A stretch of DNA of 57,908 bases, the filler included, from Catajapyx aquilonaris (taxonomy: Eukaryota), in NCBI GenBank assembly GCA_000934665.2. It is 2 parts of 2 records of this genome, joined end to end, with 100 filler letters (N's around TTAATTAATTAA, not from the genome) between each part and the next. Parts side by side here need not be neighbours in the genome. Positions count along the whole stretch, not along the records: positions 29,009 to 57,908 come from JYFJ02004850.1; 1 more part is not named here. The stretch is one strand, 5' to 3'. The notes beneath the pieces are model-generated. The model was given only the letters and a program-made list of their open reading frames with translations. It had not been told where the DNA came from and made no database searches. The translations under genes and the position numbers were made by a program. Shown here one piece after another: positions 31,047 through 54,544 of the stretch (the stretch's first letter is position 1; each line of letters starts with the position of its first letter).

Positions 31047-33921
31047 ATGGCGACCGGCCCAGAACTGCTGGCCCTCATTCGGGAAAAAGAGGAGGAACTC
31101 CTAGTCCTTAGGAGGAAATACGTACGTGAGCTGATGGAATGTGTACTTCTTGGGCAAGGATTCATTACTACTGTTGCAGGCTGACTTGAAGAAAAGAGAG
31201 CAGGATGGGGAGAGCAGTGGTGGGGATAAGCTGAGCAAGGAGGAGGTATGCCGATACAGTAGGCAGCTGATCATGCCCGAGCTGGGAGTCAAAGGGCAGC
31301 TGGCACTCAAGAAGGCCTCCGTCCTCATCATTGGGGTTGGAGGACTGGGGTGCCCCGCTGCAGCATACCTTGCAGCTGCAGGGGTTGGTATGTAGCTTGT
31401 TGCAATTAAGGTGCTGTATGTGTGGGAGCTGTACACTAATAGGAAAAATTTGGGGGTTCTTTACGCTGGTAGTGAGACCTACTAGCTCAAAATCTTACTA
31501 TCTCCAACCCCTGACTTCTCCCTGTCAATACTAGAATAAAGCGCTTCTCTTGACTGTTAGTTAGGTTTGGCAGCATTTCTGACATTCTCTGGCTGCTTAT
31601 GCATTTCTGTCAGCACCAGCCCCTCGCAACTCCCAACCTAACCATATGGTGACGGTAGTGTAAAATTAGAGAGTTTCCACCAGCATGGGATTTGGCGTAG
31701 CCCCACAAGCATCTAACTATTCAGGTAGTTGACTGGTGATCTGCTAATGCCCTCCAGACCCAGCTGCAGTGGAAAGGATGGTTTGGATTGGTTCAGGCAT
31801 CCACCTGAATCATAAGATGCCTGTGGGGCTGCGCCAGGCCAAGACGGAGACTCTGTAATTACACTACTGTATCATGGGAGTTGCGAGGTCAATGGTCATT
31901 GAAAGTAACTGCAATTTCCAATTATTTGTAATTGAATTCTATAAATACATTCTCCGAAATAATTTCCTTAATTTATGTTGATACAGCAACCAGCCCGAAG
32001 TTATAATCAATAATTTCGTTTGATAAACAGGCAAGCTGGGGCTACTAGACCATGATGTGGTGGAAGTAAGCAACCTGCAACGACAGATATTACATGCCCA
32101 GTCACGTGTGGGTCTACATAAAGCATTGTCGGGCATGACTGCAGTGTGCAGGTATTTTTTTAAATCTGATAAACCCTATTGCACATATGATGTAGTCTCA
32201 ATCCTCAGGTGGATGCAGAACCTATTGTTGTACGTCTTGATGCCAGTAATGCGAAAGAGATAATCAGCCAGTACGATGTCATTCTGGATGCTACTGACAA
32301 CGTCGGCACCCGGTACCTGATCAATGATGCTTGTGTGATGGTGAATAAACCACTGGTGTCAGGCAGTGCATTGCGTACAGAAGGGCAGTTGACTGTCTAC
32401 AACTATGAAGGTGGACCATGTTACCGGTGCTTATTTCCTCACCCACCTCCTGCAGGGGCAGTGACAAACTGTGAGGAAGGCGGAGTCATTGGTGCAGGTG
32501 GGTGTGATGTAGTACATGATAGGTATCAGTCATAAAAGAACTTTGTATTGGGGGCATTACTAATGTGGCACATTCACATAAAATCTTTGCCGGTTTATTT
32601 CAACAAATCTTGCCAATCAGAACAAATATTATCATAATGTCTTTTGCAGTATAAGTAGCATGGAATGCAGGGAAAGTGGGCAAGAATTGTCAGGTCATAA
32701 ACAGGAAAAGGCTTGTCCAGTTATTTTCAAGACTAAGCCACATTCCATATCATCATACCAGCCCCCCGCAACTTCCTATCTAGCCATATGGGGAAGGCCG
32801 TGCACTTAGCTGGTCCGCTATCCCCAGATGTAGAGTCCAAATACCCGGATGTGGAGCCCTGTATCAAAACGCATTTGGGGGGTCTCTGAACTGTTCCGAA
32901 CCTACCTATATTGTTGACAATTGTTGACAATATAGGTATAGCCTCAGAACGGTTCAGAGACGTCCCCCCGAATGTGTTTTGGAACATTGCTCCACCGGGG
33001 TTAGCGGAGCACGGGAAAAGAGAGTGAGTTGCTGGGGGCTGCATCATACTATAATTCACTCCAATCTCCATCTACTATGACAAGCTGACTCCATCTATTG
33101 AGTGAAATTCAACCCGAGAAAATGGCAATCATGGAAAGCATTTTAGAGTCACTGAAAAAATCTGTGGTTCAGTGGGTGGAATTTTCGTCCCACTGCTAGT
33201 TACTGCTAACTTAGCAGTACCAGTGTTGGGGATTGTTACTGCTAAGTTATCAGTAATTAGCAGTGGGACAAAATTTCCACCCAATGTCTCGACCCTTACT
33301 GAGTGATATTTCAGCATTGCAACAACTTGAGGAAGTACCTTAACTCCTGTTTTAGTTCCAGGTGTCATTGGCACTCTTCAGGCAATGGATGCAATTAAAA
33401 TAATTTGCGGACTGCCAGGAACTTACTCAAAGAGGATGCTTCTCTATGATGCATTAGATGGAAATTTCCGTACTATAAAACTACGTCCCCGGCGTACTGA
33501 CTGCGATGTGTGTGGTGATACACCTTCTAAGCAAGAACTGGTTGACTATGTACCTGAATGTGCCTTGACGAAACCACTAGAAGCATCAAGTCGCATCAGT
33601 GCACTGGAGTACAAGCGCATAGTTGATGAACATGAGTCTCACCTGCTACTGGATGTCCGAACTGCCGAGGAGTTTGCTATGTGTTCATTTCCTCAGGCAG
33701 TGAACATACCAATGGCTGTATTGGCTAACAACACTGAAGCTGAAAAGCAACTGACGTATCTAACAGGTAGAAATGTTTATGTTGTGTGTCGGCGTGGAAA
33801 TGATTCCCAGCAGGCAGTGCGCATGATACGCGACATAGTTCCCAATGCAATTGTTAAGGATATTGCAGGTGGGTTGTATGCATGGGGAGAATCTGTAGAC
33901 CCAAACTTTCCATTGTATTAA
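31047..33921 (+). CDS. MOCS3: Adenylyltransferase and sulfurtransferase MOCS3/UBA4 (ThiF/MoeB E1-like + rhodanese), complete, 5 exons
   Basis: Exons 31047-31121, 31180-31387, 32031-32151, 32196-32497 and 33356-33921, all GT-AG and phase-compatible. Motifs [49 protein letters not shown], rhodanese CRRGNDSQ and C-terminal FPLY*. Confidence 0.97.
31653..31869. mobile_element. Degenerate MITE in MOCS3 intron 2
   Basis: GTAGTGTAAAATT...TGGCGTAGCCCCACAAGCATCT / AGATGCCTGTGGGGCTGCGCCA...AATTACACTAC inverted arms, with an outer CCTCGCAACTCCCA / TGGGAGTTGCGAGG pair. Confidence 0.6.
32759..33041. mobile_element. hAT-type MITE in MOCS3 intron 4
   Basis: TIRs CAGCCCCCGCAACT / AGTTGCTGGGGGCTG and 8-bp TSD CATCATAC (32751-32758, 33042-33049). 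Absent from the paralogous site near 50390. Confidence 0.85.
33174..33282. mobile_element. Palindromic MITE (same family as 30092) in MOCS3 intron 4
   Basis: GGGTGGAATTTTCGTCCCACTGCTA ... TAGCAGTGGGACAAAATTTCCACCC. The paralogous site GGTTCAATGTCTC near 50520 is empty. Confidence 0.85.
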
Positions 33922-34024
33922 CATCCATAAGATCATTTCCAATGACACTTTAAAAATGTACAAATTTCAAATGATATGTCCAATCTAATCAGTGCTTCCC
34001 CAGGAACACTCAACTTAAGTCAAG

Positions 34025-34162
<138 letters not shown>

Positions 34163-38987: not shown

Positions 38988-39245
38988 CTATCGGCTCTTT
39001 AGGGGGGAAGTTTTTTTGTTTTGCCTGGAACTCTTTGCTTTCATTTTACTGCGCTTTTTGGGATAGGATAGGGACAGAAGGAAGCGGCTGTGGCCTATTA
39101 ATTACGGAAACAACTCCGGAATTTTCCTGGAAGAACCGTGGGAAACCACAGAAAACCATGGTCAGAGTTGCCGGCGCCGAGATTTGATCCCAGGGCCTCC
39201 CGATTAGCAGTCGGACCCCATATCCCCTACTCCAAACTGCTTCGG
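38921..39245 (-). mobile_element. SINE family A copy
   Basis: Reverse-complement homolog of 217-564 with (TAA)n tail. TSD AGAATCACA (38912-38920, 39247-39255). Confidence 0.9.
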
Positions 39246-40993
39246 TAGAATCACAAAATACATGTCCACAACTTTCAGGTGCAAGAAGAATAACAAAACT
39301 AACTTTTCACATTTTCGTGCCACATTGAACAAGATTTCCAATGCTAGTTGATTAAACATCTTCAAGCTGCTACATCGGCAATCGAAATTTCTACTCTCTC
39401 TTTTCTTGTATTACTTATGTAACGTCACAGTTAATTTTCACTCTCCCAATGATATAAATTAGACAGAACTAGAGGCAGAATATCCCAGAACTGATCAAAC
39501 ACTTTTAAAATAGGCTACTGGTACCATAGGAGAACTGTAACTAGTGCAACTGAAGGGCAGTTTTTCTTGATGCTGAGCTGTACGTACGCTACTGGAAAAA
39601 AAAAAAAATGCCGTGGGGTACAGCAGCTACACCTGTCCCCAATAATAAGTCTTTGTTGGTCTAAAAGTGATAAAAACATTTCTAAAAAATGTGGAGGGAG
39701 ACAGTTTAATTTTTTTGATCTCCAGTCAGGTGCGGGATGAGCATGCACAGATACGAGTTTAGAGGAGGTAAATACTTTTGTGTGTCTGGGTGGGTGGTGA
39801 GAACTTAGCCGGTCAGTTGCTGTGCCATATACAGGGTGTTTCAGAGTCACAGGTCAAGCGCGGGCGAGGGGGTGGGGAAAAATCGTAGGTGGCGACAACC
39901 CCGGTCGGTTTTATAAAACAATTAGAAATACGGCAGTAATCAAATTATTTATTACTGCCGTACGGTGTGACGTCACATCCTTTCTGTATTCGAATTGACC
40001 GGCGCAGACTGGCAGATTCAGTGGGTTGAACGTGGTTGAGCCGCTTTTTAGCATTGCGGGTTGCACTGAAAAAGGCGCTCTCATGCCATACCGGGAGGGT
40101 ACTGCACACACTAGTACACTACTTTGTGCAGTACCCTCCCGACCAGTGATGAAAAAGGGACAGAGGCCAGACAAGATGTCCAAGCGACGCTGCAGATATA
40201 AGCCACTAAACTGAAACTGCACAAAAGAGGCTATACATAACCAATTCCATTCAGACCCAGCATAAGTAGATCTCACCTTCACAATATCAAAGAAAAATGC
40301 AGGCAGGAGCTGAGCAAACAATTGACGTATGTCATTGCCAATTTTTGAGGCATGGAACACCAGCAATGTTCACAAGGTCTAACCATTCCAAAAGCCGGTA
40401 GTGTATGGTATGGGAAGTTTTTTCCCCTTCTTATATAACTGCTCGAAACATCTTTGGCTTCTTTGACAGGGCATATTCGATCCTCATACTGATGGTGGTA
40501 CGAAAGGTTCTGTTAATTATCTATTTTTTCTGCTTACGAGACCGGCCAGCTTTTCCTCGAACGTTTTCCGCATTGCACTCGCGTCCATGGCGATGAAACG
40601 CAAAAAAAATATAGCACAACTTCAAATTCGAATACGGAAAAAATACGCAAGTGAAATAAAACAACTGAGAGGACAGACACGTCTATCTGAATAGAAGAAT
40701 GTGTAGGAGAGGCAGAGTACAAGCGATAACAGATGACGATAACAGAATCAACACACTGCCCAACGAACCATGGGCATTACATAAAATGGCCGGCCCAGTT
40801 GTGAAATGCCTTCCCATTATACACACTGCCATAAAAAATTTGGCATTCTATACAGTGCCCCGGTCATTTTACAAAATGCCTGGGATATTAAACACATTGA
40901 CCCTAACATAATTATCCAAGTTGTAATATTTGGGACAGTGCAGTGGCCCTGCATGATTGGCATTGCCCTTAGATTCACGCTGTTAAATCTTAC

Positions 40994-41804
40994 CGATGGC
41001 AATGGATGGCCGCACAATGGCCACTGGCAGCCCATACGAAATGCATGCTTGCTGCAGATAATTCTCGGCCACAGATTTGGTGAGAACATAATATGTGTTG
41101 CACTTGTGACCTCTGAGTTTGGGAAGCAGCATCTCCATTTATTTTATTTATTCTATTTATTTTATTTACTTTACCCCATTGGGAGAATCGGCACTCCATT
41201 ACGGGGGTAGAATACCACCATTGGATGGGGCCAAGGATAGGGAAGGAAGAGGCGGTTGTGGCCTATTATAAGGAAACAACCCCGGAATTGTCCTGGGGAG
41301 ACCGTGGAAAACCACAGAAAACCACGGTCAGGATCGCCGGCCCTGGGATTCAAACCCAGGACCTCCCGATTAGCAGTCGGACTCCTTAACCACCACACCA
41401 ACCTGCTTCGGTTGCAGCATCTCCATTTGTTCCCCTGGGTGCAGCTCTCCAGCAAGTCCAGCATGAGTCTTGGGGAGCAAGGGGGAGGGTAGACTGTCTC
41501 TTTGACAATTGGTTTGTCTGGGCAGTCATGGTTGCAGTAGACTGTGGAGACATACGCGAAGGCTCATAGCAAGGCTGACCAGGTGGTGCACCGGACCCAG
41601 GTTGACATATATGGGCTGCTTTCAGCAGAGGATCCGCCATTTTCACAGAGGCCCCAACGCGACGTGGAAGATGACAGAAACGCACTTCTCCAGTAGGTTC
41701 CACCATTCTTCAGATAGGCCAAGTTTGTCGCATGCCAGGTCTCCCTCCACAGCCACCACCTTTGACATGCAGTCAGGTTGCTCTCTCATGGCATGACTCA
41801 ACCC
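40994..41804 (-). pseudogene. Fatty acyl-CoA reductase (FAR) exon, frameshifted and SINE-disrupted
   Basis: Minus strand, cag acceptor to gtaag donor: MSKVVAVEGDLACDKLGLSEEWWNLLEKCVSVIFHVA../..AFAYVSTVYCNHD...ETVYPPP../..LTKSVAENYLQ...LPVAIVRPSI. These are FAR NAD_binding_4 motifs. Several frameshifts and a SINE insertion; no other FAR exons were recognised. Confidence 0.85.
41141..41411 (-). mobile_element. SINE family A copy inserted in the FAR exon
   Basis: Homolog of 217-564. 15-bp TSD GCAGCATCTCCATTT (41126-41140, 41414-41428). Confidence 0.92.
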
Positions 41805-42642: not shown

Positions 42643-42920
42643 TAATAATTCATACCCGTTATCAGCCATCGGGTCTTTAGGGGGGAAGTTTGTTTTGCCT
42701 GGAACTCTTTGCTTTTCATTTTACTGTGCTCTTTGGGATAGGATAGGGATGGAAGGAAGCGGCTGTGGCCTATTAATTACGGAAGCAACTCCGGAATTTT
42801 CCTCGAAGGACCGTGGGAGACCACAGAAAACCACGGTCAGAGTTGCCGGCCCCGGGATTCGAACCCAGGACCTCCCGATTAGCAGTCGGACACCTTATCC
42901 ACTATGCCAACCTGCTTCGG
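42643..42920 (-). mobile_element. SINE family A copy
   Basis: Homolog of 38921-39245. 15-bp TSD ATTCGATGGGAATAA (42628-42642, 42922-42936). Confidence 0.92.
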
Positions 42921-43076
42921 TATTCGATGGGAATAAGGGCATAGGGTAATCATATTATTCGATTATGTCCATTCAGACCAGTATCTTCAACCATTATCTT
43001 CATTTTGGGCGTGGGCCCGTTTCATTATTATTATCGATTCCAATGCATAAATTACATAGTAAATTATTAGGAGCAA

Positions 43077-43680: not shown

Positions 43681-45287
43681 TTAGGAGTAGTTTAAATTAT
43701 GGAGAACTTCTTGATCTAGACATTCTACTCAGAGTTGAACAGAAAATATTCAAAAATACCCCCGTCCTATAGCTTCATTCCGAATTACACAAAAATGGTT
43801 CCTGGTTAGATTGGTCACAAGGAGGGTCGCAAAGTCTCTTTTTGCAATTACGTGAATGTCCAGGACATCAGAAGGAGTGGTCCTCCTAATAACCTGACCA
43901 AAACCTTGGAGTCCGTACTACACAATCACAATTCAGCTTTTATGTGTACAACTTCGCATTGATTTTGTTCCAGGATAATTCCACTGTAACTGACACAATA
44001 TTGGAAAAATTATTGAGGCCATATTTAAATTTATTGAAATAGTGCCTGTTAATATTTATTTATTATTTATTATGAAGCCCCTTTCGAGAGCATAACCCTT
44101 TTGGGGGGAGTGCAAGTTAATATAAAATACATTCCTGAATTCCTGCCTCCTCTCCTGGTAACATCTTTCCACATTTTAAATATTTATAAGTAATTAGTCA
44201 TTACTTTGAGACAATTTTTGATGCAAAAAAGAGACATGCTCTTTTACATGTAGTTGAAGTGAAGTGAAAGCTTGTGAGAACTCCACGTACCTGTACTTTA
44301 AAGTCATACACTAGGTTGGTGCATTATTGGAGGCTTATTTAGGGCCAGGAAGAACAGCTGCAGCAACATAGTAATATTATTTACACATACACAGTTCACG
44401 TTTTAATGAATTGTTTATATTATAGTGGTTATGCAGCAGGACACTTAGGTGGTTCTGTATAGTGTTTATACAGCAGTTTATAAACCATTCATTAAAAAGT
44501 GAACTAGCTGTGTATGTGTAAATAAATTGGGTGACAGTTAAATAATGTGAAATTTGGTACAATAAAACTGATTACATACTTCAATGTGATTATATATGCG
44601 GGCGCTAATGTAATCCCATTGTGCATAAAAATGTATTATTTTTGGCAGTTAACACGTCATAACTTTTGAAAACATGGGCCTCAGCCCGAAATGACTTCAA
44701 TTTTGATTATCATAACTGTTACCTTTCAAAAACACACACACACACACACACACATACCGTCCCTTGGATGAATAAGGTGTGGGGACGCGAAAAAGGCAAC
44801 TTTTCAAAGCTAGTGTAAACTGATCTGACCCACCCTAACCTAACCTACCTTACCCTACGTAACCTAGGCTGAGAAAAATGGACTTTTCTAAAACCCTGCA
44901 ACTGGAAATAACTGCAAAAGCACACCCACAATTTTCTTGCGGAGACAGTAAATGTCCCCGCAAGTGGGGAAAATGTCCCCACAGTTACAGTAAAAACAAC
45001 TACATCCTGTCCCACAGCTTATTGAAGACAGGTACACACTCATACAAGTTGTCCGGAGACGATAATCTTTTTATACTTCCCCGTGCTTATGGGCCTGACT
45101 GGAGGGGTTTTGAAACCAGCAAGACCAGCAAACACCAGCATACCAGCATTGCGATGGAGGCCCCACTTCCTTCGACCTCCCGCCCCGGGGGCAGGGCAGA
45201 GAAGGGGCGAGAGAGGCGACCAGCAGGGCTCACCACGTGGCTCTCCACAATACCTCATGAGCCGCCATACTTGCAAACAGAACGAAA

Positions 45288-45403
45288 CCGATTGGCCCCG
45301 ATCACCCGATTGGCCCAACCACAGGCCCAACCCTCTTCCTCACCCCCCCTGGTGACGTCCCATGACGTCAGTGGTCACGTGATGGAGGGGTATTGGGTAT
45401 AAA
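45288..45403 (+). promoter_or_regulatory. Upstream motif cluster: two inverted CCAAT boxes, CRE x2, E-box, TATA
   Basis: CCGATTGGCCC at 45288 and 45306, TGACGTC 45353, TGACGTCA 45363, CACGTG 45376, and TATAAA 45398-45403, about 30 nt before the tRNA-like gene. Confidence 0.6.
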
Positions 45404-45435
45404 GCACCTCAAAAGGAGAGGCCCCACAGGACGGT

Positions 45436-45572
45436 AGTGCGATAGCTCAGTTGGTTAGAGCGTGAGGCCTTAATTCTTCCAGCTTGTCATTGCATAGCGC
45501 TAGCTGAGCGCCCGAAGCAAGTCAGGTGGGGGGGGCCATCTCAAGTCGGCGGTTCAAATCCGTCTCGCACTA
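45436..45572 (+). tRNA. Intron-containing tRNA-like gene; best register gives anticodon TTA (ochre suppressor-like or atypical)
   Basis: Acceptor stem AGTGCGA/TCGCACT, D arm GCTC-AGTTGGTTA-GAGC, anticodon stem TGAGG/TCTCA and T arm GGCGG-TTCAAAT-CCGTC. Loop CC-TTA-A, then a 64-nt insert (45474-45537), then A. T6 terminator at 45575. C33 and the 4-nt variable loop are atypical. Confidence 0.75.
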
Positions 45573-46071
45573 CCTTTTTTATTTTTTATTTTTTTATTTA
45601 TTTTATCATTGATTTATTTTACCTATTAGTTTTTTTTTCTGTTTAGTTTTGTCCCGCTCCCGCGCCATGCCATGCCATCCCATCCGTTGTGGTGAATCCG
45701 GGTTCGAATCCCATGTGGGTCCTTTTTTCTCTCTCTCTTTCTCATTTGCGTCAAGCAGGTGCGACATGTAGGCATACTAATACTTAAGCTCCAGGTCAAC
45801 TGAAATGGGTATTCATTTATTTTCTTACTAATTTTGTTTTATAGTTTACGAACTCTTTCGGGTTTTTGTGGAGGTACAGTACAATACGCTGTACTCCACA
45901 TTATCCGTGCGTCGCCAAAAAATAAGATTAAAAAGTAAAGTCCGAAAAAATGTCAATATGACGTCTCGTAAACGAAGAAACTTTTAGCAGACTGTTTATA
46001 GGAGAGAAACTGAAAATCTATTGGTAATATTTTTCATTATTTTGATTAAACTATACTGTATAGTGTATACA

Positions 46072-46170: not shown

Positions 46171-48459
46171 AAAATTCATTGTTGAAATCTATGCTACGGT
46201 CTTACTTAAGGGCTACCCCATTGTCACCTCACCTCGGGTCGTAGACTAATCACATTTCCGAAATAGGGGGGGGGGGGGGGGGGNGGGGGGGGGAAACTCC
46301 GGCCGTGGACATTGCAATTGAAAAGAAAACCCAGTAGCCTATTCAACAGGTTAAGACGTCATAATAACTTTTGCAAAATTAATATGGGCCTCCGCCAGAA
46401 ATATTAATTTCATTTTTGGTTGTCATATATTATTGTCCTTTATATTAGCATGTTCAGTTTCATCAAGATCCGGCACACCCGGGAAATGGCCCTTTGAGAA
46501 ACAACTGGGGCTACCCACGGTCGAGGAGTGTTTTTGTACCCTTGAATTGGCAATGTATCTCCTGGGATACAGACTGTATGTTAATTGCCAACTATTACGC
46601 TCGTAATATTAGTTTCATGAGACAACTGAGAGGCTGGTCTGATCACATGATTCATGCACTCACTGGAGCTAATTTCACGTCTCTCAAAACCATGTTACGG
46701 CAATAAAAATAAAGAAGTTTCTTAGCGGCAGCGCGGCAACCTCTTCCTTAGAGTAGATTTCTATGCCGTTGAATAATGACTTGACCAATACAATCATACT
46801 AGAACGTTTTAACAGCAGGTAGTAAAGATGCACAAACGTTTTCTGTGACTGTGGCTGCTGGTTTACGTAGACAAGTTGCAGCATGATGTCGATACTTTAA
46901 AACAGGCAAATAAGCAGTGTAAGCGCTTATGTTGCAACATCATGGGTTAAAATAAATTATTGAATAACATAGCTTAATATTGCTGGGAAATTATGGCCAA
47001 TAATAACATGCGCTGCAGTCCACCATATGTTTATAAAGAAACTGGTGTCAAAGGTTGCACAATGCAACGGATGTTCGCATCAGTGCTGCCAGCTCCCCAA
47101 TTCCGCCTTGACATTTTACCACTGTCACTGGCAATTTGCAACACCAACACGTTACACCATGGTGGTTCGGAATTAGGATCATGGTCGAAATATGGACCCC
47201 TTCCCCTATTACGTCAAATGGGTCCATCCTTTGGACCTGATGTGGTCGGGTAAATGAATCCAACCATTGACCTCAAGTGTCAGAAAGGTAGAAAGGCAAT
47301 ACCTTACACTTAAAAATTCACACCATTTCAGGTCCAGGTGCTTATTTTAAACCAAACATAAGCAACTTAACATTTTCGTTAACTATACTAGTAGAACTAT
47401 TTATGAATGATGATTAATAAGCAGCTGAGGGCAACCATTATAGACATTACAGTCAGTACACACGACTGTATACACCCAAGTGGCACATGCCAACTCAATT
47501 TGCTTGGGTTATCATCAACAAGCGACGTGGGGTTAAAATCGTGCTTATCATGAGGCAACAATAAACAAAAGACACAACAATTTGTTACTACTAGAGAATT
47601 TTATGAGTATACGCTGCTAAACTCAGTGCTGTCAGCACTGCTGAGCTCTCCCATTGGTTAATTGCTTATTGTTATTTTATTATTTTATTGCTACTTGTTT
47701 ATTTCACTTATGCAGCTGCTGAGTTTAGCAACATACTCTATGTGTGGCATGATGGCACAGTGATTTAGGCCACAACCAGTCACAACTATCCCAACGTAAA
47801 AGACAACAAAAGGAGTGAACGGAGTCCTTTTGTTGACAGTGTTTACTCCCATTATTGTGGGACTGATTTTCCATGGAAACTTGTACAGGAGGGTGTCTCT
47901 CGTAGGCTTTTCCATGAGTTACCATTGTTGATAGTTGTTGACACCAGTCCTTTGTCTTTGTGGGATGAATAAAACCAATCGGTCCCAAACATCAATGACA
48001 CGCGTTCTCCACACACATTTGGACAGTCAGCTAACCGACCTCCCCAGGGAAATATTCCAGAACTGGTGTCCATATCGAAGATAACAACAAAATGCTCTAC
48101 CTGTGACTCGCAGCTAATCCATTAACCCCTTCGCTACCAGATAGGTCTGAACCACACAGATTTCGGCTTACGCGTACTCTGAAGATACGCACAACATACT
48201 ATTTTACAAATAATAACAGTAATGTTCTACTTACCAGTTCTGGGAAAAGGTTATGAATGTGTCTGGAACAATTTTACTTGTCTAGAAGTCCCGGAATTAA
48301 TTTCCATAAAAGGGCTATAAAAACTGGAAATTGGAGTACTGCCGAGTGCCGACCAACTGTTAGGCTGATTTAATTATGAAATGCGTGAAAATATGCCGAA
48401 TAACAACCTTGAGAACCACGCCAGAGGAATTTGCTGACATCGTCGTTCTTTGCGAGAAA

Positions 48460-49399: not shown

Positions 49400-50335
49400 G
49401 TCGATGCCGCAAACAGCACCCTAGGAATTTACAATCCTCTACCAAGCTTATTATTTCTTCTTGGATGAACAAATGATCTGACCGGATATGACCTTGCTAC
49501 GTGTCCCCCATGACAGCACACCATCATTTTGGTTTTGCTTGAGTGTATAGTTAAACCTTCTGATTAAAATAGGTCGTTACTAAACTAATACTTATTTTTG
49601 CAAATGAACGATATGGTCAGCCATTAATGCTGTCGGCCGTGAATTGAAGAAATTAATATCCTTTGTGTTTGGGCCTAAATTTACTCCCAGTGCACCTGAG
49701 TTTGACAATCTTGTCCCAAGCTCACTTAAATATTTAGGTACTGTATATTGAATAAAAGTGGTGAAAGCGGGTCGCCTTGTAGGATCCCCTTTCTTATCGG
49801 TTTTTCTGGGAGGTCCACCTCTTCAATACATATTTGTGCTTTATTGTAAATTTTCTCTATTAATTTTATCAGTTTAGGAGCTGGAATGGTCACTTTTAGT
49901 TTTTCGAATAACTGGAGGTGGGGTACCGAATCAAATGCCTTGGCGATATCTATAAATACTATGTACACCCGCGAGCATAAAGATGGAGACGGCAGGCCCT
50001 CACCTTCGGCAGGCTGCTCGGCCAATCTCAGCAATTACGGTATCAAATATACTGTCATAAATACACGAACACACGCCTGATGCAGCTAACTCAGTCCAAA
50101 AATAGTTCATTAATTTGAGTTGGATAAAGAAATGTCAAAAAAGGGCCTGCCGTCTCCATCTTTATGCTCGCGGGGGTACAGCTTACTTTTTGGTTTACTT
50201 ATATACGTGCTCATAATATTATTGTTTGCAGTGTGAATATATGATCTGTACATGATCAGCTCGGTCTAAAACCAGCCTGATCCTCTGATAGGAGGGAAGG
50301 GTTCTCTGTCCACTGTCTAATCCAATTGGTCATCA
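49400..50335 (-). mobile_element. Degenerate non-LTR retrotransposon (LINE) reverse transcriptase fragment
   Basis: Minus strand LLSEDQAGFRPS*SCTDHIFTLQ../..KLY[MITE]IVFIDIAKAFDSVPH...KGILQGDPLSPLLFNI../..SKTKMMV...CKFLG, with stops and frameshifts. Confidence 0.9.
49966..50176. mobile_element. TA-inserting MITE nested in the LINE RT remnant
   Basis: TA-CACCCGCGAGCATAAAGATGGAGACGGCAGGCCCT ... AGGGCCTGCCGTCTCCATCTTTATGCTCGCGGGGG-TA. Removing it restores KLY-IVFID. Confidence 0.88.
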
Positions 50336-50376: not shown

Positions 50377-53807
<3,431 letters not shown>

Positions 53808-54544
53808 CTGCAACATTGTTATTCTTGTGTTATAAGGTACTGTACAGTATACAGTATAACACCATTTTATTTATTAATATTTACAGTATGTGTGTTCCTA
53901 TTATTGTGGTATCTGTTCTGGTTAACAGTATTTTGGAACTAAACTGCTTAATATTAAGCACCCACTTTTGAACAGCTATTTTATGATTTATGCATATCAA
54001 AAATATCATTAGCGTCTATACTGGGTTGAGAGTGAGCACTCATGCAGGCTCTGAATTTCAAGATTTTTTTAGACAATGTGAGTGACCCATTGTCAGTTGA
54101 AGTCAGTTGTTCAACCCATCATTTTTTTTGCACACTGTACTAACTTGCAGTTCTTTAACGTTGTACATTTATCAGATACGGTACGTAATATTAGCAGGTA
54201 ATATTTATAATATCTTTAAAAAATCATGAGTAACTGTTGAAATACGAAGAAATGGTATCTCGTATAAGAACAGTCTGAAAACATTGCTACTGAAATAGTC
54301 ACATCTATTGGGATGCACACTAGGCCGACTAGGGCTTGTTGAATCAACTCATTTTAAGGGGGAAATCTCTGTTTAGGTGGGATCAGGTGGGCATATTTTG
54401 AATACCTACAAGCAGAGATTTTCCTTCATTTTTTTCCATACAATCGGTACTGGCATGACAAGTAATGAACCTGCATTAAGCATTGTTATGAGTATGATTG
54501 TACTACCATTACCATCATGTTCACCCTGCATATGAATAAACTAC

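Follow-up and report, generated by a model that had tools for sequence, protein, structure and literature searches.

An intron-containing tRNA-type gene with a UUA anticodon by position, and its sister versions, in Catajapyx aquilonaris

Transfer RNA (tRNA) genes whose anticodons would read stop codons have been predicted in several animal genomes and are usually dismissed as single-base accidents. Here we analyze such a gene in the arthropod Catajapyx aquilonaris (assembly GCA_000934665.2), where it occupies the plus strand of a 57,908-nucleotide (nt) stretch made of two joined records (the window, along which all coordinates count). The gene comes closest, among known kinds, to the anticodon-shifted tRNA genes labeled Sup-TTA by gene finders. 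In zebrafish and planaria, as here, Sup-TTA denotes a well-formed nuclear tRNA gene with a UUA anticodon (PMC11417395; PMC7962491). Zebrafish Sup-TTA genes cluster with Lys-TTT, and a Lys-UUU relative one base away is a feature that they share with the gene described here (PMC11417395). Unlike those genes, the present one has a 64-nt intron, an A1:U72 pair together with C33, a conserved upstream region with elements resembling a TATA box and a cAMP-response element (CRE), and an apparent signature of selection among its paralogs.

Other described systems resemble the locus in part. Anticodon shifts in eukaryotic tRNAs (Rogers and Griffiths-Jones 2014, PMC3923123) also involve paralogs with an unchanged body that differ at a single anticodon base; stop-reading anticodons form a theoretical class there (14 of 414 possible single-base changes), whereas the shift here appears to be to or from a stop-reading anticodon. 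All 16 intron-bearing tRNA genes of Drosophila have C-G as the proximal pair and an invariant bulge of 3 nt where the 3' cut falls, and always have 6 nt from the proximal C to the end of exon 1 (PMC6614914). These genes, for Tyr, Leu-CAA and Ile-TAT, match ours in intron site, C-G pair, bulge, spacing and a structured intron, and differ in that the anticodon here is not one for Tyr, Leu or Ile, that splicing here is predicted and that the intron, at 64 nt, lies slightly above the usual range of 14–60 nt (PMC5330540). Helenus TRIMs (Kojima 2024, PMC10886601) likewise contain tRNA-like sequences called as suppressor tRNAs, in copies with their own flanks. At our locus we saw no pair of long terminal repeats (LTRs), primer-binding site or target duplication; apparent copy number was low and divergence was confined to the intron. 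Vault RNAs and other RNA polymerase III (Pol III) transcripts with hybrid promoters share A and B boxes with upstream TATA- and CRE-like elements, a terminal helix and a variable middle, but vault RNAs lack the complete cloverleaf found here, and no Rfam Vault match was obtained at an expect value (E) of up to 10.

Gene structure and anticodon

We confirmed that the gene is a real, well-formed tRNA-type gene with an intron and, by position, a UAA-reading anticodon. The Rfam tRNA model (RF00005) matched 45436–45572 (+) at 51.1 bits, where the gathering score is 29, with an E of 4.4e-08 over the whole window; every model position (1–71 of 71) was matched, and 69 letters were inserted in the anticodon loop. 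The acceptor stem (AGTGCGA/TCGCACT) is fully paired, the D stem (GCTC/GAGC) is paired, and the anticodon stem (TGAGG/TCTCA) and T stem (GGCGG/CCGTC) each contain one G-U. The A box (TAGCTCAGTTGG, 45443–45454) and B box (GGTTCAAATCC, 45551–45561) were called from their consensus forms. The discriminator A73 is followed by CC and a run of six T's (T6). The leader GGT pairs with ACC to extend the terminal helix to 10 base pairs (bp), and the minimum free energy (MFE) fold of 45433–45575 (−58.8 kcal/mol, z −3.47, 0 of 200 shuffles as good) retains this helix along with the D arm, the T arm and a single long arm. An earlier note on this DNA, made by eye, had described the four-stem cloverleaf with its boxes and T6, the 10-bp helix and a 64-nt insert after position 37; the sequence, the Rfam alignment, the fold and in-silico splicing bear these out.

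By inspection, the bases for tertiary contacts are in place: U8, A14, G15/C48, G18 G19, U54 U55 C56, A58, G26/A44 and G53-C61. The variable loop has 4 nt and the T loop is of the elongator type. The sole departure from standard elongator rules in this inspection is position 33, which is C rather than U (45469) and lies in a contig common to all versions of the gene; the acceptor stem opens with A1:U72. All four traits had been listed in the earlier note and are present as described. The gene has every structural feature that we checked for in an intron-bearing arthropod tRNA gene except U33.

The loop bases C32 C33 U34 U35 A36 A37 correspond to 45468–45473, placing the anticodon TTA at 45470–45472. 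We spliced the gene in silico by removing 45474–45537, and also in two neighboring registers. The spliced form is a 73-nt cloverleaf that ARAGORN called as tRNA-Stop(tta) in all three registers, in line with the UUA anticodon first proposed from position; without its intron option, ARAGORN did not call the gene. A selenocysteine tRNA (tRNA-Sec), whose features include a 9/4 fold, a long variable arm and a UCA anticodon (see PMC5330540), was ruled out by the 7/5 fold, the 4-nt variable loop and the UUA anticodon.

Upstream of the gene lie TGACGTC (45353–45359), TGACGTCA (45363–45370), TCACGTGA (45375–45382) and TATAAAG (45398–45404), the last of these 29–35 nt before 45433. The region 45344–45432 is a predicted promoter. 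Two GATTGGCCC motifs (inverted CCAAT-like) also occur at 45300–45320, 110–130 nt upstream, in a part that is unique to the window copy by sequencing depth.

Sister versions and splice-site geometry

Five public runs of the same organism contain 0.48–0.71 of sampled words, and none of them is recorded as RNA. Contigs of four runs were compared over 45200–45800. One of these, X1, is a DNA run that may be the assembly's own sample, and its contigs carry three versions of the intron (Table 1), the second and third of which were rebuilt by script from contig difference tables. The depths of the three intron versions total 156.7, near the 166 of the contig that they share. For the second version the tables list 13 substitutions and every gap, of which only the one at 45472 falls outside 45474–45537; in the third, every listed difference is in the intron. 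The sole listed exon difference is therefore the A-to-T change at 45472 (tRNA position 36), which occurs in the second version (depth 61.5 of 148.9) and turns the anticodon into UUU (Lys). The third version is UUA by depth (87.4 for A versus 55.7 for the exact copy alone).

The versions have in common both exons and ~90 nt upstream of the gene, and differ in the intron by ~20–25%. For the second version, this amounts to 1 difference in 62 exon positions versus 16 in 64 intron positions (Fisher p = 1e-4). Over 45347–45394 the tables list no difference though X1 depth rises there, and a sister contig departs from the window only before 45344, as a loose end in which 8 of 11 letters still resemble the window (our own count). 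Exons and promoter that stay identical while the intron diverges by about a fifth are the signature of a used gene. From sequence comparison, this arthropod thus appears to hold at least three versions of the family, with selection probably preserving the exons and the ~90 nt upstream.

Three versions in one run exceed the two alleles of one locus and require at least two loci, unless the sample was pooled. Gene depth in X1 is ~4–5 times that of the unique flank, a rough figure that suggests a family of roughly four to five copies, not hundreds. Neither the gene nor its flanks recur elsewhere in the window. A run of unrecorded kind (X4, 32 million letters) contained an exact unspliced copy from 45387 to beyond 45799 at depth 2.5–5. 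Because exact contigs of X1 and X4, from different samples and studies, cover the A at 45472, it is not a base-call error, and this outcome, which the earlier note had named as one that would overturn its proposal, is excluded.

Two further outcomes that would have told against that proposal came out mixed. Copies with variable anticodons, as expected of a repeat, were partly found in that the anticodon does vary, but the family is small and its pattern is the opposite of decay. A sense anticodon is present in the family as UUU in one of the three versions, with UUA in the other two. The far better conservation of exons and promoter than of the intron, in a family this small, argues against a decaying repeat, and what we see looks like a small selected family with an anticodon shift rather than a high-copy repeat. 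Since one sister copy does carry UUU, a UUU-to-UUA change at position 36 is a more economical derivation than the alternative in the earlier note, in which a Lys(CTT) gene lost one loop base.

The intron is inserted one base 3' of the anticodon, at the canonical 37/38 position. C32 (45468) can pair with G45535, which leaves a bulge of three nucleotides (C45536, C45537 and A45538) at the 3' cut, and C33, U34 and U35 can extend the helix with a run of G's, leaving A36, A37 and U45474 as the opposite bulge. The geometry that the endonuclease for tRNA splicing (TSEN) recognizes, as earlier proposed, is thus borne out by sequence and agrees with the Drosophila rules. The C32-G pair, the 3-nt bulge at the 3' cut and the 6-nt spacing from C32 to the exon end were found in all three versions, as read from the sequences (two of them rebuilt); the third version keeps this geometry though its last intron letters have changed. 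Constrained folds of the three versions gave 3'-side loops of 4, 3 and 2 nt, against 3 nt in each as read from sequence. A long intron hairpin appeared in the folds of all three versions. Paired changes within it are mostly one-sided, from G-U to G-C, and several pairs are broken; covariation in the hairpin was set aside as evidence, being too weak with three sequences.

Weighing the explanations

Somewhat short of an even chance, and only tentatively, we favor the reading that the gene gives rise to the spliced tRNA of a small, selected, Lys-type and intron-bearing Pol III family whose window copy has shifted to UUA. A Lys-type lineage is the simplest because a UUU sister exists and because Lys identity is mainly anticodon-based, with no major determinant in the acceptor stem (PMC3923123); the clustering of zebrafish Sup-TTA with Lys-TTT (PMC11417395) points the same way. 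The A and B boxes, aided by the TATA element at −29 to −35, would start transcription near 45430–45433 and T6 would stop it, and the helix of leader and trailer would stay in the precursor until trimmed by RNase P and RNase Z. TSEN would cut after 45473 and 45537, with the mature-domain ruler, the proximal pair C32-G45535 and the bulge of 3 nt as its guides, and ligation of the exons by an RtcB-type ligase would yield a tRNA of 73 nt in which the loop is CCUUAAA. A U36-to-A change in the Lys-type lineage would give UUA in the window copy, and a tRNA so changed could pair with UAA. We expect the window copy to be a weak suppressor at best, given its C33, its A1:U72 and the loss of one of the anticodon contacts made by lysyl-tRNA synthetase.

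Several points weigh against this reading. Transcription, splicing, CCA addition and charging are all predictions, and no spliced product was seen in the run contigs, which are of DNA or of unrecorded kind. C33 and A1:U72 are otherwise known as traits of eukaryotic initiator tRNAs and may point to an RNA outside elongation. The body of the gene, in its acceptor and T stems, is not close to what we take to be the canonical animal Lys-UUU tRNA. A possible likeness of the body to arthropod Tyr and Lys tRNAs was set aside. The anticodon of the window copy is UUA rather than the UUU of tRNA-Lys, which keeps the gene from being assigned to Lys. When introns were allowed, ARAGORN favored a different structure, Val(tac), which takes a 45-nt intron and adds an arm; we rejected this odd call because the extra arm is aberrant and because the call disagrees with the Rfam covariance-model alignment. 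The sister versions, for their part, are known solely from contig difference tables. One substitution in each variant version lies <30 nt from a contig end and is unplaced (by contig-end logic it is probably at the last intron base), and the 5' exon of the version at depth 39.5 was taken from shared contigs rather than seen. Contig depth is not a copy number, and the three versions may include alleles or pooled individuals. With UUA in two of the three versions and UUU in one, they are also too few to fix the ancestral anticodon.

A further point against the favored reading is that no ortholog from another species was found in runs of a second organism or in metagenome and viral contigs. The two runs of the second organism (X6 and X7) overlapped the locus over T-rich 45613–45650 or not at all. 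A 21-base exon 1 pattern found no match among metagenome contigs or among viral contigs (0 in each). A 23-base exon 2 pattern matched four metagenome loci (L001–L004), two of which are tRNA-Asn(gtt) by ARAGORN, and by eye neither exon 1 nor the intron was present in the 220 letters upstream of any of the four. These bacterial-type tRNA-Asn(GTT) loci have an identical 23-nt variable-loop and T-arm segment; they were rejected as relatives and taken as chance convergence of a common T arm. In the literature we came across no arthropod family of intron-containing UUA tRNAs, in reading that included no search aimed at proving absence.

Two other accounts of the family seem improbable to us, and to a similar degree. 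In one, the product is an unspliced Pol III RNA of ~143 nt that combines a terminal helix of 10 bp with a core resembling tRNA and a long variable arm, and that acts in the way that vault, Y, VA or EBER RNAs do. Position 36 would then be an unpaired base free to vary, and variation in the third anticodon base would be tolerable in an RNA that does not decode; C33 and A1:U72, odd in an elongator tRNA, would fit as well. The two ends of the RNA form 10 bp with each other, its last bases would be U's, and in the three versions the ends are conserved and the middle varies. TATA, CRE-like and E-box-like motifs lie upstream of the internal A and B boxes, a hybrid layout used by vault, 7SL and EBER genes, but TATA-like elements are common upstream of tRNA genes in non-vertebrates. 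The cloverleaf and all tertiary-contact bases are intact beyond what a promoter would need, and the splice geometry is kept in all three versions despite the altered 3' end of the intron. In addition, a search of 45250–45800 against Rfam Vault (RF00006), Y-type and other non-tRNA families gave nothing credible at E up to 10. The other account, a functionless tRNA mimic from a mobile element or a segmental duplicate (a Helenus-type solo LTR or a decaying duplicate), would explain the conserved parts by the element's promoter needs or by recent copying. The setting suits it: the region is repeat-rich, with copies resembling tRNA-derived short interspersed nuclear elements (SINEs) and a reverse-transcriptase fragment (49729–50034), the flanks 45221–45283 and 45641–45790 are repeated in X1 (depth 200–500), and sister copies share the flank from ~45344 onward. 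Helenus LTRs moreover hold tRNA-like sequences, among them all tRNA-Sup-CTA predictions in two rust-fungus genomes (PMC10886601). The gene itself fits less well, its depth being just ~4–5 times that of the unique flank (roughly) and so not that of a high-copy element, and its differences concentrating in the intron (p = 1e-4) rather than falling evenly as in neutral copies. A Pol III retrocopy would lack the upstream 90 nt, a T6 terminator directly after the tRNA part is unlike a SINE head, and the window has no second copy, LTR partner or flank copy. An LTR from TG at 45350 to CA at 45765–45766 was considered and is weakened because one sister contig stays similar upstream of 45344, for 11 letters (8 of 11) and with no sharp boundary at the TG.

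We hold it more doubtful still that the family includes a dedicated, selected ochre suppressor, with UUA copies kept for programmed or regulated UAA read-through and a promoter that makes its level conditional. In its fullest form, an equally doubtful one, this arthropod would, by purifying selection, keep UUA members as conditional ochre suppressors, a cAMP- or stress-responsive promoter would tune read-through, and the UUU sister would mark the Lys origin. UUA is present in two of the three intron versions, splice geometry is intact, and exons and promoter are identical despite diverged introns; planaria, in turn, have 17 Sup-TTA genes and a northern-blot band (PMC7962491). The existence of the UUU sister counts against such a role, as do the two MOCS3-like last exons of the window, in which UAA serves as a normal stop. 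C33 would weaken decoding, no ortholog shows UUA kept across species, and the role itself is proposed from sequence. The least probable account, to which we give very little credence, makes the excised intron the product that matters, probably as a circular RNA (tRNA intronic circular RNA, tricRNA). Animal tRNA introns are released as stable circles (PMC4536317; PMC6614914), and the intron here is long for an animal tRNA intron and strongly structured, but it is also the least conserved part of the gene, taking 16 of the 17 scored differences in the second version and all listed ones in the third. Its hairpin is kept in shape alone, the paired changes in three sequences lending weak support.

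If the UUA copies are spliced and charged, they would amount to a natural, selected ochre suppressor in an animal with the standard code, and the means by which arthropods attain widespread stop-codon read-through, long a question, would become directly testable. If they do not decode, the family is a tRNA-shaped small RNA. Either way, annotators should not count the gene as an ordinary tRNA.

Features of the locus and its surroundings

Table 1 Features of the tRNA-type gene, run X1 contigs over it, and neighboring genes and fragments in the window
Feature	Position	Strand	X1 depth	Evidence or remark
Upstream region common to sister copies	45344–45432	+		Sequence, X1 contigs; predicted promoter
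5' leader GGT	45433–45435	+		Pairs with ACC 45572–45574; MFE fold
Exon 1, tRNA positions 1–37	45436–45473	+		Rfam alignment, ARAGORN on spliced form
64-nt intron, long hairpin	45474–45537	+		Folds; nearly all differences between versions
Exon 2, tRNA positions 38–73, discriminator A 45572	45538–45572	+		Rfam, ARAGORN; no listed version difference
Trailer CC and T6 (45575–45580), further T runs after	45573–45580	+		Predicted Pol III-type terminator, from established Pol III behavior
X1 unique upstream contig	45262–45390		36.7	Exact
X1 shared contig	45395–45471		166	Exact
X1 exact intron version	45475–45573		55.7	Exact
X1 second version	45442–45567		61.5	14 other letters, 5 gap letters
X1 third version	45475–45567		39.5	6 other letters, 4 gap letters
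MOCS3-like gene, ThiF and rhodanese domains	32191–33921			Ends with TAA at 33921
Reverse-transcriptase (RVT_1) fragment	49729–50034	-		E 7e-11; retroelement remnant between the gene and the MOCS3 exon copy
GALT gene	52918–53829	-		

Repeats are abundant in the intergenic stretch around the gene. Within 45641–45790, ~70–130 nt downstream, a T-arm-like GGGTTCGAATCCC precedes a T run, in a segment that resembles the 3' half of a defunct tRNA or SINE. In X1 this segment has several variants and a depth of 200–500, above that of the gene, and is therefore a separate repeat. A direct repeat of ~70 nt with 73% identity (44648–44715 and 46350–46427) brackets 1.7 kb that include the gene and was rejected as an element boundary, since its length and identity are too low for one.

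The last exon of the MOCS3-like gene (33282–34136; ThiF C-terminus and rhodanese) is copied 17 kb downstream at 50522–51376, with 91% identity over 862 nt. The reading frame of the copy is split across two frames and ends at TAA, and by sequence it looks like a pseudogene fragment. Both last exons end at TAA, which agrees with the remark in the earlier note that MOCS3 terminates normally there, and both have a second in-frame TAA two codons past the first. MOCS3, the homolog of Uba4, is the activating enzyme of the U34 thiolation pathway for Lys-UUU, Glu-UUC and Gln-UUG tRNAs. The MOCS3-like gene lies 11.5 kb from a tRNA-type gene that has U34 and a Lys-like family member, a proximity that is probably coincidence.

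The window also holds a repeat family with members at 216–398, 38990–39247, 41232–41412 and 42741–42921 (84–90% identity), the head of which is tRNA-Ser(gct) by ARAGORN. The head spans 72 nt without a long variable arm, and one copy scored 37 bits with the Rfam tRNA model. From these features, the family is probably a tRNA-derived SINE.

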